Shown here: one piece after another, positions 2,874 through 21,992 of the stretch
Layout: each line of letters begins with the position of its first letter
Position numbering within the stretch: position 1 is the first letter of the stretch
NCBI GenBank assembly: GCA_903902855.1
Contig: CAIUWK010000068.1
Span: 3,363-67,362, forward strand
Direction of reading: 5' to 3'
Origin: an uncultured Geobacter sp.
GTDB taxonomy: Bacteria > Desulfobacterota > Desulfuromonadia > Geobacterales > CAIOGM01
Length of the DNA: 64,000 bases
Notes under the pieces: model-generated
Told to the model about the DNA's origin: nothing
The model's input: only the letters and a program-made list of their open reading frames with translations
Database searches by the model: none
Program-made: the position numbers and the translations under genes

Positions 2874-2890
2874 TCGGGGTGAGGGGTGGT

Positions 2891-4594: not shown

Positions 4595-4606
4595 AATCGC
4601 CTTATC

Positions 4607-4634: not shown

Positions 4635-4635
4635 A

Positions 4636-6274: not shown

Positions 6275-6561
6275 CAGGGGGTAGGCTGCTTCTGCAAGAG
6301 AAACTTGAGGCTCTTGGTCACGGAATCAACCAGACCGTTCCCCCTGAACCAGGGGGAGGAACCCATCAGTTCCGACAGCGCCAGCCCGATAGCGAGAATC
6401 GCGGAAAGATTCTCCTTTAGCCAGAGCACCAGCGAAGCCGGCGGGACCGTCAACTTCGGCACGATAGGGACCACCGGCAGAGGCTCAGCGCCCCACGCGC
6501 AAATGACCATAGTGAGACAAACGATGAAGAAAACAGCGTTGATAATACGATAACTTTTCAT
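6274..6561 (-). CDS. putative holin / small lysis membrane protein
   Basis: 95 aa with two hydrophobic segments. ATGA overlap with the endolysin stop, and 1-nt overlap with the i-spanin start. Confidence 0.4.
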   Translation of the reverse strand: MKSYRIINAVFFIVCLTMVICAWGAEPLPVVPIVPKLTVPPASLVLWLKENLSAILAIGLALSELMGSSPWFRGNGLVDSVTKSLKFLLQKQPTP

Positions 6562-7043: not shown

Positions 7044-7061
7044 GACAAATCCTTTGGGGGG

Positions 7062-7100
7062 GTAAAACGAAAATCCCCCCGTGGCGATAGCCACGGGGGG
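7062..7100 (-). terminator. intrinsic terminator between the ORF6N-like gene and the lysis cassette
   Basis: On the minus strand: ccccccgtggc-tatc-gccacgggggg followed by ATTTTCGTTTT. Confidence 0.7.
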
Positions 7101-7146
7101 AAGATAACAAATCTATTTTCTCAAGTCCCTTGCGGGATTCACAAAG

Positions 7147-7878: not shown

Positions 7879-7880
7879 GG

Positions 7881-8096
7881 TTAAACCTCCTGTTGGTAGT
7901 AGTCCAGCGCGGTTTTCACGGCCTCTTCGGCGTCGGAGATAAGCCAGTACAGGCCGGTGAGAGTAACATCGGAAAGGTGACCTTTACGGTCATCGGCAGC
8001 AGTGCAGATCAGGGAGGCCAGCAGGGCGAGTTTGTAGCGGGTTTCGTTGAGGAGATCATACGGGTGCTTGTCGCACCGGGGGCAAGGGGTAATCAT
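7881..8096 (-). CDS. small phage protein (71 aa), CxxC-containing
   Basis: ATG at 8096 with an AAGGAGA SD. The 161-aa form in the track is an unsupported upstream extension. Confidence 0.45.
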   Translation of the reverse strand: MITPCPRCDKHPYDLLNETRYKLALLASLICTAADDRKGHLSDVTLTGLYWLISDAEEAVKTALDYYQQEV

Positions 8097-8341
8097 GGTG
8101 GTTCTCCTTATCTTTTCGAAGTTGGCACTTTCGAAGGTGCCGGGTGGTTCGAAACCGTGATAAGGAACGGCACAGGGCTTTCCCCTTTCGGGTATTGTAT
8201 AGCCCTGTCCACCCGACAGTCCTTTCATACTGTGGGCGCAAAAATACCGCAAATCGGTGCGGGTCCGCCTTATCACTCGTGGTTTCGACGCCACTTGTGC
8301 CGACGGTACCGCAAATTTACCTTGTGCGTCAATAACTTTTC

Positions 8342-8638
8342 TCAAAACATATTCCCCTGCTTCCACTTTTCCCGACTCTCCGCCACCAGGTCATACACAT
8401 ATCGCTCGCTCACCCCCACCTCCAAGGCCAACAACCGATGATTACCCCCGGTGAATTTCTCCAAAATCCATTCGTTCTTCGCCGGGAGAAAGAGCTTGTC
8501 AGGATGCTTCAGATACAGATGGACACTCTTCAACTCATTCGCCATCCGCACCGTCGCCTCCATGCCGATAGTCCGGACCAACAGTTGATAATCTTCCGGT
8601 AACTGCTCAATGTTGATCTTGTCGGTCCACGGCATCAC
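8342..8638 (-). CDS. Mor-family transcriptional activator
   Basis: 98 aa. C-terminal HTH LALEVGVSERYVYDLV. Typical size and position (after GemA, before the lysis/late genes). Confidence 0.7.
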   Translation of the reverse strand: MMPWTDKINIEQLPEDYQLLVRTIGMEATVRMANELKSVHLYLKHPDKLFLPAKNEWILEKFTGGNHRLLALEVGVSERYVYDLVAESREKWKQGNMF

Positions 8639-9129
8639 TTATCCCCCATCTTCTTCAATGATTCGATGACATTCGATTTCTCCGCCACGGAGCACCAGGG
8701 GAGAGCATCAAGCCCGGTTTGACGTTTGACGAAGGCCAGCATCGCCGTTGTTGAAGGATCACGGACGATCCCGCAATCATACAACGAGAGCCACATCGCC
8801 CGAATCTTCAGATCCTGCGGTTCATTGCCCACCCGGGGGGATTCACCCTGTAGGGGCGGTTCGCGTAAGGGCGGTTCGCGAACCGCCCCTACAGGACCCG
8901 CCCCGACGGTTTTCGCCCCGACAAGAACAAACCCCTTACGCTGCAATTCCTCGATCAACGCCCCGGCCTGATTGAAGGTCAACTCCTTGCAGCTCTTCGC
9001 CTTGAATCGCTCCTGGAGCATGGTCCGGTAGTCATCATCCGTAATACCCAATTTCCCCTGAGCCATCTTGATCACGGAGATCTGCCCCTTGGTGATAGTC
9101 GACTTGGCGGCGCTCTTATAGTAACTCAT
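8635..9129 (-). CDS. GemA / Mu gp16-like protein (DUF1018) carrying an in-frame REP insertion
   Basis: ISVIKMAQGKLGITDDDYRTMLQERFKAKSCKELTFNQAGALIEELQRKGF is GemA-like. The central VGAGPVGAVREPPLREPPLQGES is encoded by the REP at 8850-8892. Confidence 0.65.
   Translation of the reverse strand: MSYYKSAAKSTITKGQISVIKMAQGKLGITDDDYRTMLQERFKAKSCKELTFNQAGALIEELQRKGFVLVGAKTVGAGPVGAVREPPLREPPLQGESPRVGNEPQDLKIRAMWLSLYDCGIVRDPSTTAMLAFVKRQTGLDALPWCSVAEKSNVIESLKKMGDK
8850..8892. repeat. REP element inside the GemA-like ORF
   Basis: gtaggggcggttcgcgtaagggcggttcgcgaaccgcccctac. Confidence 0.9.
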
Positions 9130-9902
9130 TCCATGGACCTCACTAACTCTCGTAACCGTTCCCGGTTGGCCGCTCGCTCTTCACTGCTGATCTCATTATC
9201 CAACGCCTTTTGCGGCTTGCGTATGGGCATCAACTCCACCAGTTGCGCTGGACCCGGCCACTTGCGCGACTTGGTGAAGAGTTGCCGGAAGGCCGCGGCG
9301 ATCCGGGGCGCGTCCAGATCTTGCACGCTGGCTTTCGGCCTGATCGCCTGCTCCCAGATATCGGCGGTTTTGGTGATGGTATCCGCCGCCGGAGAGTTCT
9401 CCAGGCGCAACGCCAGCAGACCGGCCAGACCGGAAGCAACGGCGATCCTGACCCAATCCCCGCAATGCCACCCATCCAGGCTGTTAATGGCGGCATCGGT
9501 CTTGGAACTGGAAGCTGTTGAACAGTTGAATTGTTGAGGTGTTGAATTGTTCAATCGATTCAACGATTCAACATTTCCACGATTCAACAGCACTTTCTTC
9601 AGGTAATTATGGTTTTTCAGCGGCGCGCCCCCTTTACCCCGGAGCGCCTCCACCGTCTCGGCCATGGCCTCATTCAACGCGCCGCTCCCTGCTCCCTGCT
9701 CGCCGATCGCCAACACCTCCACCGTCAACCGTGTCATCCGGTCCCACGCCAGGGCGCGTTTCTCCGACCGAAACAGCGACAGATAGGCGAACAGAGACGG
9801 CGGAAACTCCCCTTTCATCCCGATCAACCGCCGGGCTTCCTCATCCTGGATGACCGCCTCTATGGAAAACTGCGCATGACAGCACGGGCAATGGAGCATC
9901 AT
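9126..9902 (-). CDS. phage early protein, N-terminal CPCC zinc-finger-like, unknown function
   Basis: 258 aa. Coding-like composition. Contains the in-frame low-complexity stretch NRGNVESLNRLNNSTPQQFNCST, encoded by the TTCAAC repeat array. Confidence 0.5.
   Translation of the reverse strand: MMLHCPCCHAQFSIEAVIQDEEARRLIGMKGEFPPSLFAYLSLFRSEKRALAWDRMTRLTVEVLAIGEQGAGSGALNEAMAETVEALRGKGGAPLKNHNYLKKVLLNRGNVESLNRLNNSTPQQFNCSTASSSKTDAAINSLDGWHCGDWVRIAVASGLAGLLALRLENSPAADTITKTADIWEQAIRPKASVQDLDAPRIAAAFRQLFTKSRKWPGPAQLVELMPIRKPQKALDNEISSEERAANRERLRELVRSME
9514..9591. repeat. inverted 7-8-nt arrays (GTTGAA... / ...TTCAAC) inside an ORF
   Basis: gttgaacagttgaattgttgaggtgttgaattgttcaatcgattcaacgattcaacatttccacgattcaacagc. 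Confidence 0.85.
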
Positions 9903-10252
9903 CCCTTCATCCCCCGTTCCAACTCATTACGGTATCCGTCCCGCTCGGCCCGTGCCTGAGCCAGGGATGCGGTGAGCACCTCATTATCGGCTCTCATCGT
10001 CTCCGCCCGTTGTGCCGCGATAACGTACAACTCAGCGTGCCGTCCGCACGACACGATGAGGTTTTTGTTATCCCGGGTGAGACGCTCCACCTCGGCGGCG
10101 AGAACATCGTACGAGTTCAGAATTCTCTTCATATCTCCGATAGAACACCATGAATTACTCCCGGAAGGGCTCATCCACCAACTATCCGGTGATTCCGGAT
10201 CAATGCGCACGTACGCTTTTTTTCGTGTTTCCATTGCCTCATCAATCGTCAT
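9899..10252 (-). CDS. phage early protein (117 aa), coiled-coil
   Basis: ATG at 10252 with a GGGAGGGA SD. The longer track form starts inside a REP element. Confidence 0.5.
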   Translation of the reverse strand: MTIDEAMETRKKAYVRIDPESPDSWWMSPSGSNSWCSIGDMKRILNSYDVLAAEVERLTRDNKNLIVSCGRHAELYVIAAQRAETMRADNEVLTASLAQARAERDGYRNELERGMKG

Positions 10253-10287
10253 CTCATCCCTCCCACTCAAAACAGCTCTTGTTGTGT

Positions 10288-10325
10288 CGGTTCGCGTAGG
10301 GGCGGTTCGCGAACCGCCCCTGCAG
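10288..10325. repeat. REP element
   Basis: cggttcgcgtaggggcggttcgcgaaccgcccctgcag. Confidence 0.9.
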
Positions 10326-10405
10326 ATGCCCGTTCTTCCGCTTCCGCCCTGGAGATCTTGCACCGATATTCGAGAATAGCGGCCCGCTCCTCCCAGGTGA
10401 TGCGT

Positions 10406-10657
10406 TCATCGCTGGTCATCATTACCAAGGCGGTATTCCCACGTCGGTTGATCGGCGTCCTTCACCCGGCGACAGGCAATGGCGATGCCGTTATCACGGA
10501 TCTCCTTCACCGTGGCCGACACCGCCTGATTGCGCCACCCCCTGGCCGCCGACTTCTCTGCCAGATCCCATGTCGTGTGCCACTGACCATCGGACAGAAT
10601 CGCCATGATGATCTGCAACCGCGTACTGCTGTAGAGTTTTGCAAAATTCCCCGCCAT
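10406..10657 (-). CDS. small winged-helix-like DNA-binding protein
   Basis: 83 aa. TRLQIIMAILSDGQWHTTWDLAEKS resembles a wHTH. Family not identified. Confidence 0.4.
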   Translation of the reverse strand: MAGNFAKLYSSTRLQIIMAILSDGQWHTTWDLAEKSAARGWRNQAVSATVKEIRDNGIAIACRRVKDADQPTWEYRLGNDDQR

Positions 10658-10700
10658 CTCTCATCTCCTCACACAGTGTTGAAGGTTCAAGAGGACTTCC

Positions 10701-10730
10701 GTAGGGGCGACCGGCCGGTCGCCCCTGCAG
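10701..10730. repeat. REP element, variant core
   Basis: gtaggggcgaccggccggtcgcccctgcag. Confidence 0.9.
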
Positions 10731-10738
10731 AAACCCGA

Positions 10739-10767
10739 TCAACATTCAACAACAATTCAACGATTCA
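10739..10767. repeat. 7-nt array TTCAAC type
   Basis: caacattcaacaacaattcaacgattca. Confidence 0.8.
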
Positions 10768-10768
10768 T

Positions 10769-10796
10769 GTACGGGCGGTTCGCGAACCGCCCCTAC
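10769..10796. repeat. REP element overlapping the HU stop codon
   Basis: gtacgggcggttcgcgaaccgcccctac. Confidence 0.9.
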
Positions 10797-11050
10797 ACCG
10801 CCGCCTTGAACACAAACGCCTGCTTCCCCGGAATGGCAAGGGTTTCACCCGTCTTGGGATTCCTCCACGCCCTGGTCGCCCTGGTGACGACCTTGAACGT
10901 CCCGAACCCCTTCAGCGTCACCGGCTCCGTGTGGGCCACCTCCCGGATCAGATCGAAAGCATGGACCAGAGCCTCATCGATCTCCTTCTTCGTGATCGTC
11001 CCGCTGATCATCTGCAACTGTACTTCCTCAACCAACTGTTTCCTGTTCAT
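10793..11050 (-). CDS. HU/IHF-family DNA-binding protein
   Basis: 85 aa. GFGTFKVVTRATRAWRNPKTGETLAIPGKQAFVFKA is the HU beta-arm signature. Confidence 0.85.
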   Translation of the reverse strand: MNRKQLVEEVQLQMISGTITKKEIDEALVHAFDLIREVAHTEPVTLKGFGTFKVVTRATRAWRNPKTGETLAIPGKQAFVFKAAV

Positions 11051-11062
11051 GCGTTATCTCCT

Positions 11063-11224
11063 TTAGTAGTTATCTTGGACTATTTTAAAATCTGACGATG
11101 TCAGCACCTTCCTGGAGCATACGTCGCAAAACGGACAATACACCGTGACTCTCATACCTTCCGGATGCAAATCAATTAGTACTGTGTCGATATCCACATT
11201 CGCCTGACACACCGGGCATTCCAT
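11063..11224 (-). CDS. 53-aa zinc-ribbon mini-protein (below the ORF-track cutoff)
   Basis: My translation: MECPVCQANVDIDTVLIDLHPEGMRVTVYCPFCDVCSRKVLTSSDFKIVQDNY. Two CxxC pairs. Start overlaps the upstream stop (TAATG). Confidence 0.4.
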   Translation of the reverse strand: MECPVCQANVDIDTVLIDLHPEGMRVTVYCPFCDVCSRKVLTSSDFKIVQDNY

Positions 11225-11415
11225 TAGATAAATACCTCCTCAATAAAGATGACTTTTGCCCAGCAGTTGCAAACAGGACAGACAAGATTTTTTCCCGGCT
11301 CAATGGTCCCTGCGCTTGAAAGATAGATTTTCTGCTTTTTATCCTTGGTAAACTTCATGCCGCAGCAACGCGTGCTGTCGCATTTGGCCGTAACCTTGAA
11401 ATACGGTAGTTTCAT
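11224..11415 (-). CDS. 63-aa Cys-rich small protein
   Basis: Contains C-x4-CC and CPVCNC. Start overlaps the upstream gene by 4 nt (11412-11415). Confidence 0.45.
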   Translation of the reverse strand: MKLPYFKVTAKCDSTRCCGMKFTKDKKQKIYLSSAGTIEPGKNLVCPVCNCWAKVIFIEEVFI

Positions 11416-11654
11416 TCCTTCACCTCGCTATCTTCCCTTGCCGCCAGTGCCTTCCCGATAGAGGTTTCATACCCGTAATCTCCCGGTACCCCGAAAGCCC
11501 GAGGCACCGGAGTCCCCTCCAGAATGCGCGCTAGCCCTTTCAATAATTCAACTGCGTCACCGACGATATCATCCGGGTAAAAGTCAACTGTGCCGATATC
11601 TCGTAACTGCTTAGCAGCTTCCCGGACCGCCATTACCATGAGTCGAGTATTCAT
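11412..11654 (-). CDS. phage early protein (80 aa), unknown
   Basis: ORF-track ORF, tightly packed in the early operon. Confidence 0.4.
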   Translation of the reverse strand: MNTRLMVMAVREAAKQLRDIGTVDFYPDDIVGDAVELLKGLARILEGTPVPRAFGVPGDYGYETSIGKALAAREDSEVKE

Positions 11655-11662
11655 AACTCCCC

Positions 11663-12268
11663 CTACGCCGCGATATTCAGATTCAGCTGCTGATAATCCC
11701 CTTTGGCGTCCCGCCGGTAGAACCGGACGTACGCCTTGGAACTCTCCACCTGGATGCTGTCGCTGATAGCCTGCATCGCCTGCTTCCAGGTCTCGTCCTT
11801 GATATCGATCCGGCGCAACGACAGAATCCGCTTGGTGTTGATCCGCCCCGCCTTGTCCACCTGAAAGGCATCATTGATGAGGGTCCGGATCTCCGACCCG
11901 CTGTCTTCCGACCACCGCCGCAGACAGTCGTCAATCAACGCCTTGGCCGCCTGGAGCCGCTCGTCGAACCTCAGGAAATCATCCATGGAGCGCACCAGCT
12001 TGAACTTGCCGTCATAGCTGGTCAGGGTGACGTTGCCTACCTTTCCCCCCAGATTCGCCCCGTACTTCTCGGCGGAGAGCTCCACAAACGCCTGGATATC
12101 CTCCATCACGTTCTTCTTGAACTCCACCAGCAGCTGGGAAATCGTATCCGCCCGTTTCATCAGCTCGATGACCAGGCCGTTTCTCACCAGATCCACCTCC
12201 TTGATCGACGCCACCGGTACCAGCCGTCCCACCCCATCCGCCATGTAACCTGCCACGATCTGCTCCAT
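11663..12268 (-). CDS. DUF3164-family Mu-like phage protein
   Basis: ATG at 12268 with an AAGGAG SD gives a 201-aa protein, the typical size for DUF3164. The 279-aa track form has an R/H/D-rich extension that does not look coding. Confidence 0.6.
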   Translation of the reverse strand: MEQIVAGYMADGVGRLVPVASIKEVDLVRNGLVIELMKRADTISQLLVEFKKNVMEDIQAFVELSAEKYGANLGGKVGNVTLTSYDGKFKLVRSMDDFLRFDERLQAAKALIDDCLRRWSEDSGSEIRTLINDAFQVDKAGRINTKRILSLRRIDIKDETWKQAMQAISDSIQVESSKAYVRFYRRDAKGDYQQLNLNIAA

Positions 12269-12295
12269 CTGTTGCTCCTTGTCGTTGGTAATATC

Positions 12296-12319
12296 GGGCG
12301 CAGCAAGCCGCGCCCCTAC
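12296..12319. repeat. REP-like element, variant and partial
   Basis: cgggcgcagcaagccgcgcccctac, upstream of the DUF3164 start. Confidence 0.6.
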
Positions 12320-12425
12320 GTTAATACCCAAATACCCCGAACGATTGCCCCCGTCAGGATGATGATGACGGTCCCGATGAAGAACCGCCCCACGATCCGC
12401 TCCGTCCTGGTCATCCTCGGCGGGT

Positions 12426-12557
12426 TCATGCAAACGCCTCCGATACCATGTAGGCCAGCCACCCCAGGGCAAAGCCGATGAACATTGCCATGGAGACCGC
12501 AATCATCATGTACCGGGCCAGATGCTCAACATACTGATCTTCGTCGAAATTCTTCAC
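12426..12557 (-). CDS. 43-aa small membrane protein
   Basis: GTG at 12557 with a GGAGGA SD and a GTGA overlap with the upstream mini-ORF. Hydrophobic MMIAVSMAMFIGFALGWLAYMV. Confidence 0.35.
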   Translation of the reverse strand: MKNFDEDQYVEHLARYMMIAVSMAMFIGFALGWLAYMVSEAFA

Positions 12558-12727
12558 ACCATCCTCCCCGGGTAATTCACCTCGCCTCTCTTCCCCCCCC
12601 GCACCGTGAATGCTCCCATCTGCGCCAGGGCGATGTTCAACCGGCAGTTCGCCTTGTAGGCCATGGCCCGTTTCGTCCGGCCGAAGACCCGCCGCCACTT
12701 CAGATGATCAATAATTGCTTGCAACAT
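12554..12727 (-). CDS. 57-aa basic mini-protein (below the ORF-track cutoff)
   Basis: My translation: MLQAIIDHLKWRRVFGRTKRAMAYKANCRLNIALAQMGAFTVRGGKRGEVNYPGRMV. GAGGAG SD 9 nt upstream. Confidence 0.3.
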   Translation of the reverse strand: MLQAIIDHLKWRRVFGRTKRAMAYKANCRLNIALAQMGAFTVRGGKRGEVNYPGRMV

Positions 12728-13268
12728 GGCTCATACTCCTCTCGGTTAGCAGCGGATTCGGTTCCAGCATCCCTTTCAAAAAAGAATGGGGCACAAAGGG
12801 GGGCGGGTTGGTCTGCGGGCCATTCAGCCACTTGGACTGTTTGCGACCGCACGGGCCGCACATCCGGCTGTGACTGTAATACACATGCTTCCCCGTACAA
12901 CCTTCCACACAGCAATCATTGGTCGGGCGCGGGTTTGTAAGCTGCCTCTTCCCCGTATTCCCGCGGGTTACGGCCACCCCCCGCACACTCTCCAGCGGGA
13001 TATCCCGATACCTGGCAAAGTACGTCTCTGCCTGACGTGCCACCCGCCAGCCGCAGATATCACACTTGATTTCATCCTCCACGGCATACCCGGCCCCGTC
13101 GCTGATCATGGTGACGGTATCCCGCCGCAACGGTCCGGAACACTTGGGGCAAACCGGCTTTTTCAATTGAGAATTGACAGTTGATAATTGACAATTGGGG
13201 GTCAATTGTCCCTTGTCCATTGTCAATTGTGCATTGCCGTTCTTGTCCATTGTCACTTGCTGTGTCAT
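12708..13268 (-). CDS. Cys-rich phage early protein (186 aa), unknown
   Basis: GAGAGGGG SD. Several CxxC pairs (CPKC, CDIC, CGPC). The N-terminal MDKNGNAQLTMDKGQLTPNCQLSTVNSQL is encoded by the AATTGAC repeat array. Confidence 0.45.
   Translation of the reverse strand: MTQQVTMDKNGNAQLTMDKGQLTPNCQLSTVNSQLKKPVCPKCSGPLRRDTVTMISDGAGYAVEDEIKCDICGWRVARQAETYFARYRDIPLESVRGVAVTRGNTGKRQLTNPRPTNDCCVEGCTGKHVYYSHSRMCGPCGRKQSKWLNGPQTNPPPFVPHSFLKGMLEPNPLLTERSMSHVASNY
13164..13256. repeat. inverted 7-nt arrays (AATTGAC / GTCAATT type) inside an ORF
   Basis: caattgagaattgacagttgataattgacaattggggg tcaattgtcccttgtccattgtcaattgtgcattg. Confidence 0.85.
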
Positions 13269-13344
13269 AATCCCCTCTCTTGAATTCTTTCCCGTAGTCC
13301 GGCTCCCCTGGTTGCACCCAGAGGGAGCCGTTTTTTACGGTTTT

Positions 13345-13370
13345 TTCACCATTCACCATTCACCATTCAC
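13345..13370. repeat. 7-nt array TTCACCA x3-4
   Basis: ttcaccattcaccattcaccattcac. Confidence 0.9.
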
Positions 13371-13374
13371 GCCT

Positions 13375-14610
13375 TTAAATTGCCCCTACCACTTCCGCCG
13401 TCACCTTCGCCTCCCCCAATTCGCACGCCAGATTCATCGCCCGGGTAGCGTACAGATTCACCGTCAGCGGATACGCCGTGGAAACACTCCGTCCCCGCTC
13501 CCCGGCCACCGTCAGCCGCCGCTGCAACAACGTCATCGCCTCCTCATCAAAGATTGTTTCCACCTTGCCACCCACCAGCCGGATCTTGTGTTCCAGGTAT
13601 TCCCGACAGTTGGTCATCCCGTCGATCCGCGCCACCTGACAGCGCCGGATCACCTCCCGCATCTCCGGATGGAACCGTTCATCCAGCAGATCCCCCAGCT
13701 CCGTTTGACCGATGAGGATGATGCTGATCAGCTTCCGGTACCCCGTGGTGTCCTCCAGCTCGTAGATCTGTTTCAGCGTCTTGAAGGCCGCCACATTCAG
13801 CCGGTGAGCCTCTTCGATGATCAGGCAGCAGCGCGTCCCCTGTTGACTCCGTTCCAGCAGCAGCCGCTTCACCTGCCGGGCCTTGTGCTCGTGCTTCACC
13901 CGCGGCTTCTCGCTGCTGATATCCATGATGATGGCGTCACACAACGATGCCGACGTGATCTTGTCCTTGTCCAGGATCTCCGGATAGACCACCTGAATAT
14001 CCCCTTCCCGCCGGAGCTGCTCCACCACCAGCTTCCGCATGGTGCTCTTGCCGCTCCCCACTTCCCCCACCACGGACAGAAAGCCGCTGTGCATGGCCGA
14101 ATCCATCATGGCCGCCTCGATATAGCGGTGATCATCATCCTTGTAAATGTCCGACGCCTTCTGCACATCGTTGATAAACGGCGACCGAAACAGCTTAAAA
14201 TGCTTCATTGCCCTGGGGTCCAGCATCTCCACCACCTCCACACTCTCTATTTTTTCCGGATCTCCCGGTTGCATCGCCCGTACCGTAGGCGCCCGATGAT
14301 CATGACACCCCACGGGATGAACCCTGTGCCGTGCTTCATCGGCCTTGTTCCAGATATCGACAATCTTCAGATGACGCTCCGTCAGCCACGCCGTCACCTC
14401 GGCGTTTTCGGCAAGAACACTCTGCAATTTTTCCTTGAAACCGCGAATGCTGGGGGGGATTACCCCCCGGTTAACGCAGAGGTTAATAGTTGCCCGGGAA
14501 ACCCCCATCGCATCGGCGATACTCTTTTGCAGAATGGCGCACTCCAGGATCAGGTGTTTCAGGATGATCGGCGCAATCTCCAGATCATAGACTTTCGTAT
14601 GGTGTGTCAT
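13375..14610 (-). CDS. MuB-like AAA+ transposition helper ATPase (ExeA/TniB-like) with N-terminal HTH
   Basis: Walker A GEVGSGKST and Walker B CCLIIEEAH. N-terminal HTH ADAMGVSRATINLCV. Start overlaps the transposase stop by 4 nt (14607-14610). Confidence 0.8.
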   Translation of the reverse strand: MTHHTKVYDLEIAPIILKHLILECAILQKSIADAMGVSRATINLCVNRGVIPPSIRGFKEKLQSVLAENAEVTAWLTERHLKIVDIWNKADEARHRVHPVGCHDHRAPTVRAMQPGDPEKIESVEVVEMLDPRAMKHFKLFRSPFINDVQKASDIYKDDDHRYIEAAMMDSAMHSGFLSVVGEVGSGKSTMRKLVVEQLRREGDIQVVYPEILDKDKITSASLCDAIIMDISSEKPRVKHEHKARQVKRLLLERSQQGTRCCLIIEEAHRLNVAAFKTLKQIYELEDTTGYRKLISIILIGQTELGDLLDERFHPEMREVIRRCQVARIDGMTNCREYLEHKIRLVGGKVETIFDEEAMTLLQRRLTVAGERGRSVSTAYPLTVNLYATRAMNLACELGEAKVTAEVVGAI

Positions 14611-16358
14611 CGCATCCCCCCCGCCGCCTGTAGGGACGGTTCGCGAATCGCCCTTACATTATCCGCCCCTACGGTCACCGGTTCCGGCAACGCCCTCCCG
14701 GCGGCAATGGCCGCAACCACCTCACCCACCAGCCGATTATCAATAGTCTCTCCGTACTTTGCCCGCAGATCCTTGTTCAAAGCCGGCGTCATGGTCACCC
14801 CATCCGCCAAAAGCGCTTTGAACAGCAACACAATGGGGACTTCCGTGGTCACCACACTGCGGGAAATCTCCGCCACCGTCCCCACCTTGGGAAACGCCAC
14901 CACATTCCCCATCTTATCCTCGAACCCTTCAAAGGCATTGAGCCCGGTGAACGGCGCCACCTTCCCGGTTCGCTGCTGCTTGGAACTGAGCGTAGTCGAA
15001 GCGCCGTAAGCGATATCTTCCAACTTCTTCACCGCCGTCTGCGTCGTCGTATCCTTGTGCGACTTGAACGCCTCGCCGATAACCACCGAATCCGCCCGAA
15101 AGCCCCCCAGTTCCGGCGCCAGCTTGCCGATCTCCTTCACCTCGAACAACCGGTTGTCATACCCCACCACCACGATCCCTTCCTTCCACTTGAACAGGTT
15201 CTTGATCACCTTCACCTTGGTCCCGTGGGGGATATTGGCATGCGCCAGATTGAATTCCTTCCCCTGGAAGCTGATCCGGTGACTGTTCACCGTCCGCTCC
15301 TCCTCCGGCCGGTTCAGCAGGTCGCACAGTTCGGCCCGATCCGGCAGAATCCGGAGCTGCTCCTTATTGATGGTCAGCCAGCAGACCAGCCGGGTCATCT
15401 TGGTCCGGCTATGCTCCCGCGAAGCGTTGAACCAAATGCAAAAGCCCCGCGCCTTCCGGTTCAGATCCTCCATCCCCGTGGCCGGATCGAACCGGAGCCG
15501 CGTCTCGAACCACTTCTCCCAGATGTTATGGGTGACTTCCACGCTCCCCTGTCGCCGGCTGTTCCCCGGATTCCCCGGCAGGATGTTGATCTCCAAGCCA
15601 TCCCAGAACCCCATCCCCATGGCCTTCGCCTTGGCCCGACTCCCGCCGTCCATGAGCATGGTTTTCGGCACTCCCTGGAAGGGGAAGTTTTGTTCCGCTT
15701 TCGCCTCCCAGGCGCAGCAACTGAAGTCGAACAGGTTCTCCGCCGTCTCCCCGGCTGCCAGATAATACTTGACGAAAAAGAAGCCGCTGAAATGGTCGGT
15801 CATGATGTACCGCTGCAACGGCTCCTTGATCTTCTTGAAGTTTTCAATCTTGTTCTTGTAGAACTCATCTTCCCGCATGATCTGCATGCCGCCTTCGTTC
15901 AGGTAATACTGAATGCAGGTGGAGACATCCACCAAGTGGCAGTGATTGGGGTGGAGCGACCGGAGCGAGACATGGGGGGTCGGGTTATTCAGCCGTTTCG
16001 AGTCCATCTCCAACTGCCGCAGCTGCTTCTGCACCGTCTCCACGCTGGCCTCGCCCCGGAGCATGATGTTGTTATCGATGGCGAACTCCATGGCGTTTTC
16101 CACCGGCATAAAAGCCCCCTTATTCTCCCGGCGACTGGCCCAGATCGCCGAAGCGATAAACTCGGCGGTTTCCAGCTTCAGACCGCCATTCCCCTTATCC
16201 GCTCGCTCCTTGCGCTCCAGGGCAAAGCCGTGATCCTTGGCGATGCGGTACAACGTAGAAGAAGAAAGACCTCGTAACCCCTGATACCGGGCGATAATTC
16301 CCGCTCGTTCCCGCGCCGGCGCTTCATTCAATTCCCAGGCTAATTCCCGTTGCCACAT
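14607..16358 (-). CDS. Mu-type DDE transposase (MuA-like)
   Basis: 583 aa. N-terminal HTH (SSSTLYRIAKDHG). Candidate DDE residues in HLVDVS, LMDGGS and GSVEVTHN with DD(35)E-like spacing. Followed by the MuB-like gene. Confidence 0.85.
   Translation of the reverse strand: MWQRELAWELNEAPARERAGIIARYQGLRGLSSSTLYRIAKDHGFALERKERADKGNGGLKLETAEFIASAIWASRRENKGAFMPVENAMEFAIDNNIMLRGEASVETVQKQLRQLEMDSKRLNNPTPHVSLRSLHPNHCHLVDVSTCIQYYLNEGGMQIMREDEFYKNKIENFKKIKEPLQRYIMTDHFSGFFFVKYYLAAGETAENLFDFSCCAWEAKAEQNFPFQGVPKTMLMDGGSRAKAKAMGMGFWDGLEINILPGNPGNSRRQGSVEVTHNIWEKWFETRLRFDPATGMEDLNRKARGFCIWFNASREHSRTKMTRLVCWLTINKEQLRILPDRAELCDLLNRPEEERTVNSHRISFQGKEFNLAHANIPHGTKVKVIKNLFKWKEGIVVVGYDNRLFEVKEIGKLAPELGGFRADSVVIGEAFKSHKDTTTQTAVKKLEDIAYGASTTLSSKQQRTGKVAPFTGLNAFEGFEDKMGNVVAFPKVGTVAEISRSVVTTEVPIVLLFKALLADGVTMTPALNKDLRAKYGETIDNRLVGEVVAAIAAGRALPEPVTVGADNVRAIREPSLQAAGGMR
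14630..14672. repeat. REP element inside the 3' end of the transposase gene
   Basis: gtagggacggttcgcgaatcgcccttac followed by attatccgcccctac. Confidence 0.8.
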
Positions 16359-16381
16359 ACCGCACCCCCTAAAAACAATCC

Positions 16382-16431
16382 ATAAACCTTAAACCTTGAA
16401 CCTTTAGCCTTCAGCCTTCAGCCTTTAACCT
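16382..16431. repeat. 7-nt array TTNANCC x7
   Basis: ataaacc ttaaacc ttgaacc tttagcc ttcagcc ttcagcc tttaacc. Confidence 0.9.
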
Positions 16432-17347
16432 GCATGTGTTCTTTCTCCCACTGCTCAAACTCCTCCATCACCTGGGGATTGAGGCCCGGTCCGCCGATAT
16501 CCATGACGGCGCGATCCTGCCAGGCGTTGGCCGTCATCCGCATGTAATCCAGGGTAGAGATCAGCGCCGCCGCTTCCCGTGGCGTATGGTCCCGGTTGGC
16601 CAGCTCCTCAAAGGCGCTTTCCATCTTGAGCATGTAGCCGTCAAAGCCGACCCGCAGGGTAAAGACCTTGTTCAGATAGCCGTCTTCCTCGCCGGTCATC
16701 CCCTTGACGGCGGCGCGTCCTTCCAGCTTGTCCACCTGCTGCTGGAGCTTCTGCACCTCCTTGTGGGTAGCGGTCTGCACCCGGTCAAAGGCTTTCTTTT
16801 GGGCGACGACTTCCGCCTTCGTTTTGGCCTGCTCCTCGATAATCGTTTCGATGGCCGCCTGCAGATCTTCCCGGTGGTCCGAGTCCAGAGGAATCCGTTC
16901 CCCGCCGATCTCCACCGCCTCGGCGTCGATGATCAGGACGCCGTCATGGGTGAGGAGCCGTAGCTTACGAATATCTTTGTGGCTTAGTGAAAACTGGTGG
17001 CACGTATCCAAAAATTGAGGACCTAACACATCGAGTTGCCGCAGGCGTTCATCAGTCGTATGACGATCTAAACCAATGTAATCACAAAATTTTTCCCAAG
17101 TTCCGATAGTCGGAAGGTCGCGGTATATCTTTGTCTCCTTCAACTTTTGCAACTGCACTAAACTGGCGACAGTCACCACTTTTTCAACGAAAGTGAATGC
17201 CTGAATCCGTCCAGCAAACTCGTGGGCCTCGGCAATGCGTGACTGCTTGCACTTCAGCTCCGCGATCTCCAGATCTGCCTGCTCCCGGGCGATACTGGCG
17301 ATGGAATTGACCGTATCCACCTCTGACTCCATCCCTTTTCTACTCAT
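16418..17347 (-). CDS. phage early protein (309 aa), coiled-coil, unknown
   Basis: ORF-track ORF between the Ner-like gene and the transposase. Its last codons run into a TTNANCC repeat array. Confidence 0.5.
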   Translation of the reverse strand: MSRKGMESEVDTVNSIASIAREQADLEIAELKCKQSRIAEAHEFAGRIQAFTFVEKVVTVASLVQLQKLKETKIYRDLPTIGTWEKFCDYIGLDRHTTDERLRQLDVLGPQFLDTCHQFSLSHKDIRKLRLLTHDGVLIIDAEAVEIGGERIPLDSDHREDLQAAIETIIEEQAKTKAEVVAQKKAFDRVQTATHKEVQKLQQQVDKLEGRAAVKGMTGEEDGYLNKVFTLRVGFDGYMLKMESAFEELANRDHTPREAAALISTLDYMRMTANAWQDRAVMDIGGPGLNPQVMEEFEQWEKEHMQVKG

Positions 17348-17651
17348 GATCCGCTCCGATACTGGTCAAATCGCGGCCAATCCGGTCGCGTTTACCTTCC
17401 AGATTCGCCTTCACCCTGGCCCAAAACAGCGCCACCCCCATGCCGATCTCCCACACATCATTCTCCCGCCGGACGAATCCCGCATCCAACGCCGTCATCA
17501 GCCAGCAAAGCACCGTATTCACCGACTCGCCCATTCCCTGAGCAATCTCCGCCGCCGACATCGGCTGTTTCGCCTGAGACATCAGCTTCAACATCTCATA
17601 CCCCTGCGCCTGCGCCTTAATCCGTCGATAACTATCCCCAGCCATACTCAA
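17340..17651 (-). CDS. winged-helix (IclR/MarR-like HTH) small protein
   Basis: 103 aa. MSAAEIAQGMGESVNTVLCWLMTALDAGFV resembles a wHTH. Confidence 0.45.
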   Translation of the reverse strand: MSMAGDSYRRIKAQAQGYEMLKLMSQAKQPMSAAEIAQGMGESVNTVLCWLMTALDAGFVRRENDVWEIGMGVALFWARVKANLEGKRDRIGRDLTSIGADHE

Positions 17652-17673
17652 AAGCTCCCTTTATCCCTGATTT

Positions 17674-17703
17674 TTCAACCTAGAACCTTGAACCTTGAAC
17701 CTG
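17674..17703. repeat. 7-nt array TTGAACC type
   Basis: ttcaacc tagaacc ttgaacc ttgaacc. Confidence 0.9.
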
Positions 17704-17705
17704 TT

Positions 17706-18140
17706 TCACCTTATTCCAACCTTTCCCCTCAGCCCCGCAATCTCCAGATCCAGCTTCCGCTTCTGCTCTTCCAGCCGCGCCAGCCGGAACAGATCCCGGT
17801 CCTCCGGTCCCACCACCTCGCCGCCCAGGGGGTCAAGCAGATAATGAAACGGCTGCAACGAACCCACCACCCGGCACAGCGCCGGCAGAGCCTCGGCCCG
17901 CAACGCATGCGCCAGATCACTCCCCGTATACTTGTCAAGGGTGTCCTTGCTCAGGTCCCGCCGTTGCAGCCGGCTGATCTCCGCCGCCACCTGATACCGG
18001 TCCTTGCCGCTCTGGCTGATGGAGCGACTCAAACATTGACGAAAGCCCAGGGCGATATCCATGGAACCTTCCGTATCGGTGTCGAACAAAGCCTGTTGAC
18101 TGGACAGCAAACTGTCTTTACTACTGCGGACTTTCGACAT
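17706..18140 (-). CDS. phage early protein (144 aa), unknown
   Basis: ATG at 18140 with an AAGAGG SD. The 210-aa track form would overlap the Ner-like gene. Confidence 0.45.
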   Translation of the reverse strand: MSKVRSSKDSLLSSQQALFDTDTEGSMDIALGFRQCLSRSISQSGKDRYQVAAEISRLQRRDLSKDTLDKYTGSDLAHALRAEALPALCRVVGSLQPFHYLLDPLGGEVVGPEDRDLFRLARLEEQKRKLDLEIAGLRGKVGIR

Positions 18141-18190
18141 TGCGCAAACCTCTTTATCTGTCAAAATCAAAGCAAATTTGATAAGATGCT

Positions 18191-18418
18191 TTAAGCGGCG
18201 TGGCGGTATTCTTCCGGCGTATCGGGAAACAACGCTTCCACCGGAACCTGGCACATCTCGGCGATCGTCCGGCGCACTCGGTACCCCGTCCGCTGGCCGG
18301 AGAGGATGTAATGGATGTAGGTCATACTGATCCCACATGCCTGTGAAATGGCCCGATTGGTGACACCTTTCTTCACCATCTCGGATCGTACATGTCGGAA
18401 CTGTTCCTGTGCGGTCAT
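18191..18418 (-). CDS. Ner-like HTH transcriptional regulator
   Basis: 75 aa. HTH NRAISQACGISMTYIHYIL. Size and position near the divergent repressor as in Mu ner. Confidence 0.6.
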   Translation of the reverse strand: MTAQEQFRHVRSEMVKKGVTNRAISQACGISMTYIHYILSGQRTGYRVRRTIAEMCQVPVEALFPDTPEEYRHAA

Positions 18419-18439
18419 GGCTTCTCCTTTACTTTTGCT

Positions 18440-18733
18440 TCAGTCTTCTTTGTAGATCAACAGGTCAACTTTACCCGGAGCGGGGAAATCTATTGTGTAG
18501 TAGTACAATTTCGTCTCAAGATCAGGGAAGATATCGTAAACACATTGCCAGAGTTCCCATTTAGCAAGGGTCAGATAACGACCTTCGTTGTTTGCCCTGA
18601 TGTTTTGATCACTGAGACGAAGCAGTTCGAGTACCCTGCTGCCCGGTACCGATAACCGTAATACAGGGAGTTCTGGTTCACTTTTGATCTCACACCTATC
18701 TTTCAGGAGGGATCCCAAATGGCTTATTTTCAT
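18440..18733 (-). CDS. first gene of the early operon (97 aa), unknown
   Basis: ATG at 18733 with a perfect AAGGAGA SD. Visibly AT-richer than its neighbours. The 182-aa track form extends into the operator region. Confidence 0.45.
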   Translation of the reverse strand: MKISHLGSLLKDRCEIKSEPELPVLRLSVPGSRVLELLRLSDQNIRANNEGRYLTLAKWELWQCVYDIFPDLETKLYYYTIDFPAPGKVDLLIYKED

Positions 18734-19004
18734 GACTGTCTCCTTTACGGGCAAAGTGTTGTTAGTTTGGTTATCCTGGTACTCGTAGCCTGGAACCGAT
18801 ACGAGAAAGTTATGGCCCTTAGAAAAGCTCGTAAAACAAAGGCGGCCTGTTCCAAGCCGGACAATGAACCACCCATCAAACAGCGGCAGAATGGGCTTCA
18901 TAAACGGTAAATTATCGTTACTCTCTTGAACCGGTGAAAAGTGATAACGTGATAGACGGATATTATCCGAATGGATAAGAACTGTCAACAGGAAAATTAT
19001 ACAA
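18734..19004. promoter_or_regulatory. divergent repressor/early-operon control region with repeated GATAA/TTATC motifs
   Basis: AT-rich 271-bp gap between divergent genes. At least six GATAA/TTATC occurrences in 18910-19015, including GGATATTATCC and GTGATAACGTGATAG. Confidence 0.5.
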
Positions 19005-19388
19005 ATGGATAATTTATTGCTTGGTGATCGAATCCTTTTTGCTATCAGGGCTTATGGACATAGCCAAGACGCCATTGCAGCGTCTTTGGACGTGTCTCCA
19101 GTATCCTTGAATCGGTACATAAAAGGTCACCGAGTACCAGATGCGGATTTTCTTATCCGTTTGGTTGCAATAACTGGTTGTGATGCAGGATGGCTATTAA
19201 CCGGGAAAGAACGAGCTGAAGGAGGGAACGAGAGGATTAACCAGCGGCCCATGGATACCATAACGGAGAAGATTCACCAGCACCTGGAGCAAATGTGTGA
19301 GGATCAAAAGCGGGACGTCCTAAAATACGCTGAAGAGAAGAAACTGCTTTCAGAACTGATGTCGGAGCGGCAAAGAAAGACAGGATGA
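19005..19388 (+). CDS. XRE-family phage repressor (Mu c-like role)
   Basis: 127 aa. HTH SQDAIAASLDVSPVSLNRYIKGH. Divergent from the early lytic operon. Confidence 0.75.
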   Translation: MDNLLLGDRILFAIRAYGHSQDAIAASLDVSPVSLNRYIKGHRVPDADFLIRLVAITGCDAGWLLTGKERAEGGNERINQRPMDTITEKIHQHLEQMCEDQKRDVLKYAEEKKLLSELMSERQRKTG

Positions 19389-19822
19389 ATAAGGGGGATA
19401 TTGTGAGTAGGATTGTTTTTCTGTTATTTGTTATTTGTGTGGGAGGGTGCGGTAATATCGAATGGTTTCCATCTACTTCGCAGGGTAATACCACAACTAC
19501 CACGGTAAGCCACACGGCACTTTGCACTGACGGCACCTATAGTGATTCGGCGACTTGTAGCGGTACCTGCTCATCTCACGGCGGTGTAAGCGTATGGTAT
19601 GTCGCGGACTGCGGCACCGCGACTACTCTGGGGAGCGCGACAGCTACTTGTACTGACGGTTTTCTCAGTTATTCTCAGAATTGTTCAGGAACTTGTTCTT
19701 CACATGGTGGAGTTGCAACTTGGCACACAACCGCGTGCGGTGGAACTGTTGCCAAAGCTCTCGCATTTCCACAATATAGTGGAGCCTCTATTGAACTGAC
19801 GACACTTATTACCTCTCAATAA
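19385..19822 (+). CDS. prophage lipoprotein with two DUF3761-like Cys-rich repeats
   Basis: ATGA overlap with the repressor stop. Signal peptide plus lipobox-like CVGG-C. Repeats CTDGTYSDSATCSGTCSSHGGVSVWY and CTDGFLSYSQNCSGTCSSHGGVATWH. Confidence 0.6.
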   Translation: MNKGDIVSRIVFLLFVICVGGCGNIEWFPSTSQGNTTTTTVSHTALCTDGTYSDSATCSGTCSSHGGVSVWYVADCGTATTLGSATATCTDGFLSYSQNCSGTCSSHGGVATWHTTACGGTVAKALAFPQYSGASIELTTLITSQ

Positions 19823-20045
19823 ATTACCGGGGGAAGAACGAGCTGGAAGTAGCGGGGAGGGGATGACGCCGATGCCAGGGCAAAGCCAGTCCCTGGGCGG
19901 GATGGTGCAGCAGCAGGGAGACGCGATCACGGAACAGATCATCCGTCGCCTGGGACAAATGTCAGAAGATCAACGACGGGACGTGCTAAAATACGCCGAA
20001 GAAAAACAACTCCTCGCTCAACTGATGGCCGAACGGCAACGATGA
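19821..20045 (+). pseudogene. second copy of the repressor C-terminal region (remnant, or a small C-terminal-only protein starting at 19863)
   Basis: 19823-19849 matches 19196-19222, and 19967-20043 matches 19300-19376. Encodes EDQRRDVLKYAEEKQLLAQLMAERQR versus the repressor's EDQKRDVLKYAEEKKLLSELMSERQRK. Confidence 0.55.
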
Positions 20046-20098
20046 CCGGATAATGACGGACCTGGGGAACGAGTCTGTACAAGGGAGGATAGTGATAA

Positions 20099-20460
20099 TG
20101 GATATATTTATCAGGAAAGAACGTACTGGAGCTCAGCGTTACTGCCTGTCATGTCAGTTTTACGGTGAAATGAAAACCTGGATTCGTAACTACAATCTGC
20201 CTCAAGTCGTTATGATTTTTCTGCTATTCAGTTACATCCTCCCCGGTTTACTCTTCATTGCCTACTTCTGGAATAAGTACAAGTGTCCCCAGTGCGGTCA
20301 AGTAGGAAAAAACATAGACAAAAAACCCGGACCTAAACCAATTTACGACTTGGATCAGCCCATTCTAAAGCCACCATCAAAAATATGCCCCTATTGCGCT
20401 GAAACCATCAAGCAACAGGCAATCGTCTGTCGTTATTGCGGGAAAGACCTCCACCACTGA
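20099..20460 (+). CDS. zinc-ribbon membrane protein (120 aa), unknown
   Basis: AGGGAGGA SD before the ATG at 20099. CLSC, one TM helix (VVMIFLLFSYILPGLLFIAYFW), CPQC, then C-terminal CPYC-x12-CRYC. Confidence 0.5.
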
Positions 20461-20587
20461 AGAGGCTGATCCGCCCTTCCCTCCCCTACCCCGTTGAAAA
20501 AGTAATTACGTCAGCAGAAAGCAGATGATCCCGAATGAGCATCGCGGGGTAATGAAGAATTTTGTACTACCATGATATGGAGGGAAT

Positions 20588-21577
20588 ATGAATACTGTTC
20601 AGACTACAGAGTTTATCATCGATAGTGACAATTCCGCCTGGGAGCTGCTGGAAAAGACTCTACGGGAAGGTGCACCAGAAGGTTTGCTCGACATCCGGTT
20701 TGATGGCTGGCCCAAGCTAGTATTTTGCCTAAAAGGCGACAAGTTCGATTCATCCCTGACAATCAAAACGATGAATTACTTCGTCGAATTGCAGCGAAAT
20801 ATCAATTGCTCTTATGCCCAATTGAAGTACAATCGGCCTAACGCGATTGGATTATCCAATTCCGAACGGGATAGCCTAGAGCTCATAGTTAAGGTTGATA
20901 AAGGCTCGTCTATTTTCGAGGTCAACTTTCAACAGGCTTTTGAGGGACTTTTAAAGGGGATCGTTGGCAAAATGACTGGCACGGAGATGTTGTATACTAT
21001 TCTCGGCGTTGGGTTAATCTATGGCACGGTCACGGTGCTAAAGAATTACATCGATCAGCAGGGTAAAAACAAACAGATCGATATGATCCAGGCATTAAGC
21101 GTCCAGGAAACTGAGAAAATGAAGTTAATCGTCGAGGCTGCCAAGCGGCAACCGCAACTGGCACCCATCTACGCCGATGCTGAAGAGACTTACAACGATC
21201 TGCTTCGTAGTACCATTGAAGCTGATTATCTGGAAGTGGGTAAATATCGCCTGCAAAGGGATATTGCCGAACAAATGCTCAGGCAGAAGCGGGAAAAGTC
21301 GGTCGAGGTTCAGTTGAACGGCTATTACCGCATCCTCAGTGTGGACAGCTCTAAAAAAGAAGGCTTCACGGTTGGGCTCAGATCGGCAGATGATCAACGC
21401 GAGTTCCAGGCGGTACTTGATGATAATTTTGTATTCAGAAGGGATGCCAATCTGGAACTTATCAAGAATGCAGAATGGGGTAAGACCGATATTCATTTAC
21501 GCATTAATGGCAAAGAGCTCCGCGGGGCAATTCAACAAGCCACAATCATCGAAGTCATTATTGACAACATCAAGTAA
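20588..21577 (+). CDS. orphan 329-aa protein with one central hydrophobic helix and a coiled-coil
   Basis: GGAGGG SD. MLYTILGVGLIYGTVTVL is the only hydrophobic segment. Visibly AT-richer than the phage core. I recognise no family. Confidence 0.55.
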   Translation: MNTVQTTEFIIDSDNSAWELLEKTLREGAPEGLLDIRFDGWPKLVFCLKGDKFDSSLTIKTMNYFVELQRNINCSYAQLKYNRPNAIGLSNSERDSLELIVKVDKGSSIFEVNFQQAFEGLLKGIVGKMTGTEMLYTILGVGLIYGTVTVLKNYIDQQGKNKQIDMIQALSVQETEKMKLIVEAAKRQPQLAPIYADAEETYNDLLRSTIEADYLEVGKYRLQRDIAEQMLRQKREKSVEVQLNGYYRILSVDSSKKEGFTVGLRSADDQREFQAVLDDNFVFRRDANLELIKNAEWGKTDIHLRINGKELRGAIQQATIIEVIIDNIK

Positions 21578-21584
21578 CACAAAA

Positions 21585-21609
21585 ATGAGGGGCAAACATC
21601 GCCCCTCAT
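21585..21609. terminator. GC hairpin after the cargo genes
   Basis: atgaggggc / gcccctcat 9-bp stem with a 7-nt loop. The A5 run upstream reads as a T-run on the minus strand, so the canonical form is for leftward transcription. Confidence 0.5.
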
Positions 21610-21615
21610 CCAGGT

Positions 21616-21672
21616 TCAAACCAACCGAAATTTTCACGGCGCAAATCCATCAAACCAACCTTGAAAACATTC
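21616..21672. repeat. two direct repeats TCAAACCAACC-(1-2 nt)-GAAA near the prophage end (candidate transposase-binding sites)
   Basis: tcaaaccaaccgaaattttc at 21616-21635 and tcaaaccaaccttgaaaacattc at 21650-21672. Confidence 0.4.
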
Positions 21673-21761
21673 CTTCTCCACCCTCCCGTCAACCATTCGC
21701 CAATCATCGTCGCGGTCATTTATCGCATTTCCCCCTACTTGTTTATCCTCCCCCCCTTTAA

Positions 21762-21992
21762 CAGGACGACGGAACTGTTCTGGGCGGTAACGGTCCTTAC
21801 TACGTCTCCAACAACAAGAACGGCAACGCGGGCTACCCTTGGGCGCTGGACATCCCGCAGGGATGGAAGTGGCCGACGGAGACGATCGATATCGTGACGG
21901 CGTATCCGAACTTTGCGGCATGGGTCCAATCGAGCGGCAAGCTGCAAACCACGTGGTATCTCTCGCCAAACAGTGCGAAGGTTTATCCGTAA
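21762..21992 (+). pseudogene. 3' fragment of an LruC/DUF4842-domain gene, 5'-truncated
   Basis: The frame opens right after a stop at 21759-21761, with no start codon. Encodes QDDGTVLGGNGPYYVSNNKNGNAGYPWALDIPQGWKWPTETIDIVTAYPNFAAWVQSSGKLQTTWYLSPNSAKVYP, which resembles the LruC C-terminal motif as I recall it. Confidence 0.55.

Follow-up and report, generated by a model that had tools for sequence, protein, structure and literature searches.

In a 64,000-nucleotide stretch of DNA from an uncultured Geobacter sp. (contig CAIUWK010000068.1 of assembly GCA_903902855.1, positions 3,363 to 67,362; hereafter the window), the repressor-side end of a Mu-like prophage carries a gene for a protein of 329 amino acids (aa) at 20588–21577 on the plus strand. 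On balance, we favour the reading that this gene encodes a lysogen-expressed, membrane-anchored phage-exclusion or abortive-infection protein, whose expression, membrane insertion, topology and anti-phage activity we infer from its context, its relatives and its predicted structure. The gene had first been described as an orphan. By profile match, it is instead a member of PHROG 6191, a known uncharacterised family that is large, unnamed and almost entirely phage-borne, which improves the annotation of this genome.

The basic description of the gene in the first-pass annotation holds. The reading frame is open over its full length, and a good Shine–Dalgarno sequence, GGAGGG, lies at 20579–20584 on the plus strand with the ATG 3 nucleotides (nt) downstream. 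The gene is also visibly low in GC, with 45.5% compared to 57.8% for the genome (about 12 points lower) and 56.9% for the prophage body (window positions 1–18400); the whole block 18400–21600 has a GC content of 46.6%.

Membership in PHROG 6191 is supported along the entire protein. The phrog_6191 profile matches residues 6–323 on profile positions 5–331 of 338 (E 1.4e-77), and the same profile matches an Escherichia coli relative, WP_000357056.1 (hit H3), which is about 33–34% identical to the window protein, with E 1.6e-152. An exhaustive HMMER search of 1.84 billion cluster representatives (50%-identity clusters) returned 763 relatives at E <= 1e-3, of which 491 also lie at or below 1e-10 and 137 at or below 1e-30. 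Almost all of the relatives are 320–350 aa long and align end to end. A word-indexed search found 10 relatives with 29–66% identity, including proteins from Geobacter anodireducens (49%) and Pseudomonas (37%). Across 44 diverse members, three residues, G50, Q69 and G106, never vary, and I11, E14, A17, F38, W41, P42, M62, L89, S107, R177, R235 and A318 are nearly invariant. The window protein keeps every family-invariant residue and shares the length, domain order and conserved residues of PHROG 6191, with no difference seen. The hosts of the family span Geobacter-like bacteria, Pseudomonas, Moraxella, Enterobacteriaceae, Vibrio and Lysobacteraceae, and only five of 72,556 plasmid records contain homologues.

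No family had been recognised at first, but the protein does have one, PHROG 6191, which has no assigned function. All source names seen for its members read "hypothetical protein", Pfam and NCBIfam scans of the 329-aa protein gave no model matches, and no annotated PHROG, Pfam or PADLOC family matched it. A sequence profile search of the PDB produced nothing meaningful (best match titin Ig, E 0.06), and in the literature on phi458 Orf11 and on repressor-adjacent transmembrane defence genes we found nothing on the PHROG 6191 family.

The distribution of the gene is that of optional cargo. Of 22 viral contigs with a related transposase (28–63% identity), 12 share the ner-g210-g103-g309-A-B early operon, and none of the 22 contains a homologue of the 329-aa gene or of the lipoprotein and zinc-ribbon genes that precede it in the window. 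The gene is likewise absent from all three genomes of the same genus and present in nine of the 300 further genomes that were sampled in the class. Just one more Mu-like copy was seen, in a G. anodireducens remnant, and it too is terminal and intact. Absence from related Mu-like phages, patchy distribution in the class, atypically low GC and variable upstream genes thus support the view that the gene is a moron, as had been suggested from its position at the prophage end, and a stand-alone, horizontally moving cassette. The G. anodireducens remnant and metagenome contigs (L003–L006) present a decayed Mu-like left end, which retains a Ner-like gene and the beginning of the early gene behind it, up to the point where an ISL3 transposase breaks the operon; three intact cargo genes stand upstream of the G. 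anodireducens homologue and are unrelated to those upstream in the window.

A survey of homologue neighbourhoods, which had been proposed in the first-pass annotation, revealed several recurrent positions: next to repressors, next to integrases, next to nucleases and between Q and holin genes. Family members immediately follow, and share the strand of, a CI-type repressor in E. coli phage phi458, where the gene occupies the position of lambda rexAB, in Moraxella phage Mcat17, in a Pseudomonas lambdoid prophage, where it is divergent from cro, and at locus L106. IMG/VR and genome loci together gave 33 non-redundant neighbours upstream on the same strand, 12 with Peptidase_S24 and 12 with HTH_3. 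Other copies are adjacent to integrases or recombinases (L094, L100 and L101), and a few adjoin tail or lysis genes. In E. coli and other Enterobacteriaceae, one version of at least 90% identity is found in 40 viral contigs, antisense between the gene for antiterminator Q (phrog_79) and the holin gene, with an upstream region of its own (about 300 nt) and with upstream genes that differ among contigs; 86 of 5426 complete E. coli genomes carry this version at >=99% identity. In two genomes of the same order (G119 and G072; loci L104 and L105), the homologue is located two genes downstream of a restriction-endonuclease-like protein of 327–337 aa, HSDR_N-like in one locus and Mrr_cat in the other, with a small open reading frame (ORF) between nuclease and homologue. 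This arrangement could be a small defence islet.

The window copy is on the strand of its repressor with two cargo genes intervening. The repressor (127 aa, 19005–19388, plus strand) matches Pfam HTH_3 (E 1.1e-8) and Phage_CI_repr (E 2.8e-5) as well as PHROG repressor families. It is divergent from the early operon and heads a rightward, lysogeny-side string of genes that ends in the 329-aa gene, and a terminator scan detected no strong terminator between the two. Because the gene string reads with the repressor gene, the 329-aa protein is most likely made in the lysogen, as far as gene orientation and the lack of an intervening strong terminator can tell.

Remote homology and structure prediction, another approach that the first-pass annotation had named, added to the PHROG 6191 match a predicted C-terminal OB-fold-like barrel. 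The AlphaFold2 model of the full protein was built on 11 sequences and reached a mean predicted local distance difference test (pLDDT) of 82.7 and a predicted TM score (pTM) of 0.64. It agrees with the layout read from the sequence at first, namely an N-terminal domain, a hydrophobic helix, a coiled-coil and a C-terminal domain, with the coiled-coil modelled as a helical hairpin; all coordinates of these parts are on the plus strand. The N-terminal alpha/beta domain (residues 1–125, 20588–20962), delimited by model and conservation, contains most of the invariant residues (GWP 40–42, G50, Q69 and KGSS 105–108) and is acidic, with a median family isoelectric point (pI) of about 4.9. Modelled alone on 31 sequences (pLDDT 77), it gave no credible fold, the best Foldseek match in the PDB having a probability of 0.20.

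Behind this domain follows the Gly-rich hydrophobic helix (residues 131–151, 20978–21040), a probable membrane anchor by Kyte–Doolittle hydropathy, model and flanking charge. The single hydrophobic helix that had been noted at first, MLYTILGVGLIYGTVTVL, is found at residues 134–151, and the model places helices at 131–146 and 148–161. In close relatives the segment reads LGxGLIxGG. Its position is kept in 152 relatives (median start 130), where the 19-residue Kyte–Doolittle score has a median of 1.68, with 62% of relatives at 1.6 or above and 25% at 1.9 or above. The helix probably anchors the protein in the inner membrane. A linker of a helical hairpin or coiled-coil and a small beta hairpin (residues 152–234, 21041–21289) connects it to the C-terminal domain, its modelled elements being helices 148–161, 172–187 and 191–209, strands 214–223 and helix 224–231.

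The C-terminal domain (residues 235–324, 21290–21559) is predicted to be an OB fold on the basis of model topology and Foldseek matches. Its elements (b1 239–253, b2 261–266, b3 272–277, helix 282–298, b4 301–311 and b5 314–324) follow the order b1-b2-b3-alpha-b4-b5, which is the canonical OB order. Foldseek matches of the full model in the PDB are confined to the C-terminal ~95 residues and are all OB folds, including the Rim1 SSB, the LysRS anticodon-binding domain, IF1, Teb1, LT-B and SilF, with probabilities up to 0.99 and target-normalised TM scores of 0.4–0.6 but E-values of only 0.04–0.2; no PDB match of the full model reached E <= 1e-3. In BFVD, viral OB proteins such as LEF-3 were matched, together with two uncharacterised phage proteins of similar layout over about 315 columns (E 3e-6 and 5e-5, TM ~0.3), one of which carries the label DUF6575.

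An independent machine-learning study lends the family a published defence prediction. DefensePredictor Table S10, "Predictions for 3,000 E. coli strains", covers uncharacterised clusters and lists WP_000357056.1 as "Predicted novel defense gene" (Science 2026, PMC13092281), with a mean log-odds of 6.55 (range 4.5–9.7) compared to the strict cutoff of 4 used in that paper (PMC13092281). The listing covers the E. coli member by prediction, and the window protein shares only the identity of about 33–34% given above with that member. Peptide strings from WP_000357056.1 had no match in those DefensePredictor supplementary files, or parts of files, that were accessible. The same table contains a second E. 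coli hypothetical protein of 339 aa (1020 nt), WP_001176391.1, with much higher log-odds of 13.2, which might, but need not, be a further member.

Taken in this way, the lysogen would make a membrane-anchored 329-aa protein that protects it against other phages, and two modes of action can be envisaged. In the first, the entry of DNA would be blocked at the membrane (superinfection exclusion). In the second, a phage component would be sensed through the OB or N-terminal domain, whereupon oligomerised helices would collapse the membrane (abortive infection), as proposed for AbiP and PdpSau. Abortive infection is a plausible inference from the cargo slots and the machine-learning prediction for the E. 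coli member; membrane exclusion is an equally good alternative.

Three groups of known proteins are instructive for comparison. Lambda RexA and RexB are encoded by abortive-infection exclusion genes that are co-transcribed with cI, and RexB is a polytopic membrane protein. As with Rex, many PHROG 6191 members directly follow a CI-type repressor on the same strand, and a membrane component is expected; unlike Rex, which comprises two proteins, a PHROG 6191 member is one protein with one hydrophobic helix. Homology to RexA or RexB was rejected, with hhalign probabilities of 0.09% and 0.27%, respectively, and so was a Rex-like two-component design of sensor and ion channel, because the gene is single and has no conserved partner across about 90 loci.

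Lactococcal Sie2009, P22 SieA and HK97 gp15 are superinfection-exclusion membrane proteins that are often encoded between repressor and integrase; these proteins are smaller, and none is known to contain an OB fold or to begin with a large N-terminal domain. They resemble the 329-aa protein in being prophage-encoded and membrane-associated with expected expression in the lysogen, and PHROG 6191 copies occupy the repressor–integrase slot at L094, L100 and L101. Judged by these general descriptions, the 329-aa protein is set apart from them by its larger size, its OB fold and its N-terminal domain. Tab of JBD26 was also considered for comparison and rejected, as it has 83 aa and is encoded in a late operon.

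The nearest design analogues are AbiP of Lactococcus and PdpSau of Staphylococcus aureus prophages, two abortive-infection proteins that are anchored in the membrane and bind nucleic acid through an OB-like domain (PMC10127798). PdpSau, an accessory cargo protein of prophages, has its anchor at residues 5–27 and permeabilises the membrane on infection (PMC10127798). The likeness consists in a single protein with a membrane anchor followed by an OB-fold-like domain, which in the 329-aa protein is predicted; in the case of AbiP, likeness and difference alike are drawn from its description. The anchor of the 329-aa protein is central (~131–151), behind a novel N-terminal domain of 130 aa, whereas theirs is N-terminal, and its OB domain is not clearly basic. 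As the anchor of AbiP and PdpSau is N-terminal and no extra N-terminal domain precedes it, the 329-aa protein is not a member of that group. Homology to PdpSau (phage 53 ORF016) was rejected, the family profile giving an hhalign probability of 0.05%.

These comparisons allow a more far-reaching proposal, which we offer tentatively and regard as rather doubtful: the family might be a novel anti-phage system made of a single protein, with signalling across the inner membrane. The N-terminal domain would detect the phage outside, the helix would oligomerise, and the OB domain would bind phage nucleic acid or protein inside, upon which entry would be closed or the cell depolarised. Such an architecture would be unrelated in sequence to Rex, to AbiP/PdpSau and to Sie proteins, AbiP and Sie being compared by description only.

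Several observations weigh against a role of the 329-aa protein in phage exclusion or abortive infection. WP_000357056.1 is not among the cloned (Table S6) or validated (Table S8) units of the DefensePredictor study (PMC13092281), and no family of PADLOC-DB v2.0.0 matched the 329-aa protein at E <= 0.1. Neither a catalytic nor a pore-forming signature was seen in the protein. The OB domain has a median pI of 8.3 in the family, which is only mildly basic, and one of 5.8 in the window protein; this offers weak support for nucleic-acid binding. The hydropathy of the helix is marginal in the window protein (1.54), and 38% of relatives fall below 1.6. Furthermore, the topology cues conflict. The protein has no signal peptide or lipobox, and since no signal peptide precedes the 130-aa N-terminal domain, an N-in topology is suggested; the lysine and arginine content of the flanks is higher on the C-terminal side (3.6 compared to 2.0 on the N-terminal side; of 153 proteins, 109 have the higher content C-terminally and 25 the lower), which points to C-in. 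Lastly, the 127-nt gap in front of the gene yielded no sigma-70-like promoter.

Of the other explanations, the one that survives best is that of a lysogenic-conversion membrane protein that alters the envelope physiology or fitness of the host (stress tolerance, surface properties or colonisation) and does not block phages. We consider it unlikely but worth keeping in mind: the same cargo slots also house non-defence morons, the protein is probably located in the membrane, OB folds also bind sugars, metals and proteins (LT-B and SilF are among the matches), and in the window the gene stands beside those for an envelope lipoprotein and a zinc-ribbon protein of the membrane. However, the very different hosts and habitats of the family are easier to reconcile with a function directed at phages than with one tied to a niche, some copies adjoin restriction nucleases, DefensePredictor scores the E. 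coli member as defensive, and the protein has neither signal peptide nor lipobox.

The marginal hydropathy of the helix bears on a further possibility, a soluble cytoplasmic OB-fold protein that acts on phage or host nucleic acid, with the hydrophobic helix buried or mediating oligomerisation. The lack of a signal peptide, the conflicting topology cues and the predominance of nucleic-acid binders among the OB matches (SSB, LysRS, IF1 and LEF-3) would all agree with a soluble protein. Yet the segment is the most hydrophobic stretch of the protein, its position is kept in nearly all relatives, most of which score above the window copy's marginal value, and its flanks are charged like those of a membrane span, while the OB domain is not strongly basic. 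We consider a soluble protein unlikely, slightly more so than an envelope function.

The proximity to repressors raises the question whether the protein is instead an accessory part of the phage's own lysis–lysogeny control, for example a sensor, tethered to the membrane, that modulates cleavage of the repressor or induction. In several phage types that are unrelated to one another, family members do adjoin CI/S24 repressors of the same strand, and the window gene belongs to the repressor gene string. Against this stand the 40 contigs of E. coli prophages in which one protein (at least 90% identical) is encoded well away from the repressor, antisense in the interval between Q and holin, the copies beside integrases, nucleases, tail or lysis genes, the absence of the gene from 22 related Mu-like phages with the same early operon (shared by 12 of the 22), and the different types of the adjacent repressors (a short HTH protein here, HTH plus S24 elsewhere). 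Taken together, they render a part in the control circuit improbable. Least credible, to a degree that we would hardly consider it, is a decaying or non-functional leftover: the gene does lie at the extreme end of the element in a fragmented assembly, and the G. anodireducens copy belongs to a decayed remnant that an ISL3 element interrupts, but the frame is intact and full length, the Shine–Dalgarno sequence is good, the family profile is matched end to end with all invariant residues retained, the gene is intact even in the decayed Geobacter remnant, and no frameshifts, loss of invariant residues or relaxed selection were seen.

The surroundings of the gene are consistent with a Mu-like element. 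A phrog_310 transposase is encoded at 14607–16358 on the minus strand, a B-like gene lies upstream of it in window coordinates, and a Ner-like helix-turn-helix (HTH) gene of the early operon is found at 18191–18418 (minus strand). In the divergent control region, two 17-nt near-palindromes at 18962–18978 (ATTATCCGAATGGATAA) and 18996–19012 (ATTATACAAATGGATAA) are likely operators; the second overlaps the start codon of the repressor. An ORF of 182 aa without family match (18440–18988, minus strand) overlaps the AT-rich control region between Ner and repressor genes and may, in all or part, be the first gene of the early operon.

Between the repressor and the 329-aa gene lies a small cassette region. 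A DUF3761 lipoprotein-like cargo gene (19385–19822, plus strand; Pfam DUF3761 E 3.6e-17) overlaps the repressor stop codon and is followed by a duplicated 3' part of the repressor gene (19822–20045, plus strand; repeat families D1–D3), which is 74–78% identical to 19195–19376 and contains a 60-aa ORF (19863–20045) paralogous to the repressor C-terminus. This ORF is a leftover alternative repressor C-terminus, and the duplication is the scar of a cassette insertion. With this duplication just behind it, the DUF3761 gene looks like a cassette inserted or swapped at the 3' end of the repressor gene. No homologue of the lipoprotein was present near any other PHROG 6191 family member examined.

A zinc-ribbon protein of 135 aa (20053–20460, plus strand; Pfam Zn_ribbon_3 E 4.6e-7) is the adjacent cargo, separated from the 329-aa gene by the 127-nt gap. 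It had been suggested as a partner, which the survey contradicts: a zinc-ribbon gene is missing beside all but one to three of the ~90 homologue loci, where matches to a 25-aa motif were found 1–2 kb away at two loci and one unrelated Zn-ribbon gene at L101, and the related Geobacter locus has other upstream genes. No conserved partner gene of any kind was found across about 90 loci, and we reject a system of the 329-aa gene with either the zinc-ribbon or the lipoprotein gene, as neither accompanies it at other loci.

Downstream, a hairpin with a 13-bp stem (21583–21611) directly follows the stop codon of the 329-aa gene. With a T-run on the minus strand only in the terminator scan, it is a probable terminator or insulator, and it is conserved in the alignment with the G. 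anodireducens locus. It is followed by a terminal non-coding segment (21612–21763), presumably bound by the transposase at the repressor-side end of the element. This segment carries a direct repeat, CAAACCAACC (at about 21616 and 21651), as candidate transposase-binding end sites, and is partly conserved with the G. anodireducens remnant (L003, about 10991–11200). In total, 185 nt past the stop codon align with the DNA behind the homologous gene in the G. anodireducens contig, up to ~21763, and from 21762 to 21992 on the plus strand a start-less C-terminal fragment of a DUF4842/LruC-like gene on the host side can be translated (76 codons; Pfam DUF4842 E 2.4e-18, profile positions 156–208 of 208). 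As similarity to G. anodireducens ends where this host fragment begins, the 329-aa gene is therefore the terminal gene at the repressor-side prophage end, which bears out its first description as the last gene before truncated host DNA. The fragment is the only DUF4842 match in the assembly, in which the N-terminal part of the gene is not present. A search for the opposite prophage end and for a target-site duplication found neither; the contig starts within the prophage, 3362 nt ahead of the window.

Should phage exclusion prove to be its function, the family would be a widespread addition to the known defence or exclusion proteins, with hundreds of clusters in hosts as different as Geobacter-like bacteria, E. 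coli, Salmonella, Pseudomonas, Moraxella and Vibrio, and one of the larger PHROG families without an assigned function would gain one. Current defence catalogues would then have missed it since the family lives in prophages and not in defence islands. It would also represent a second, non-homologous case of the "membrane anchor plus OB fold" design of AbiP and PdpSau.

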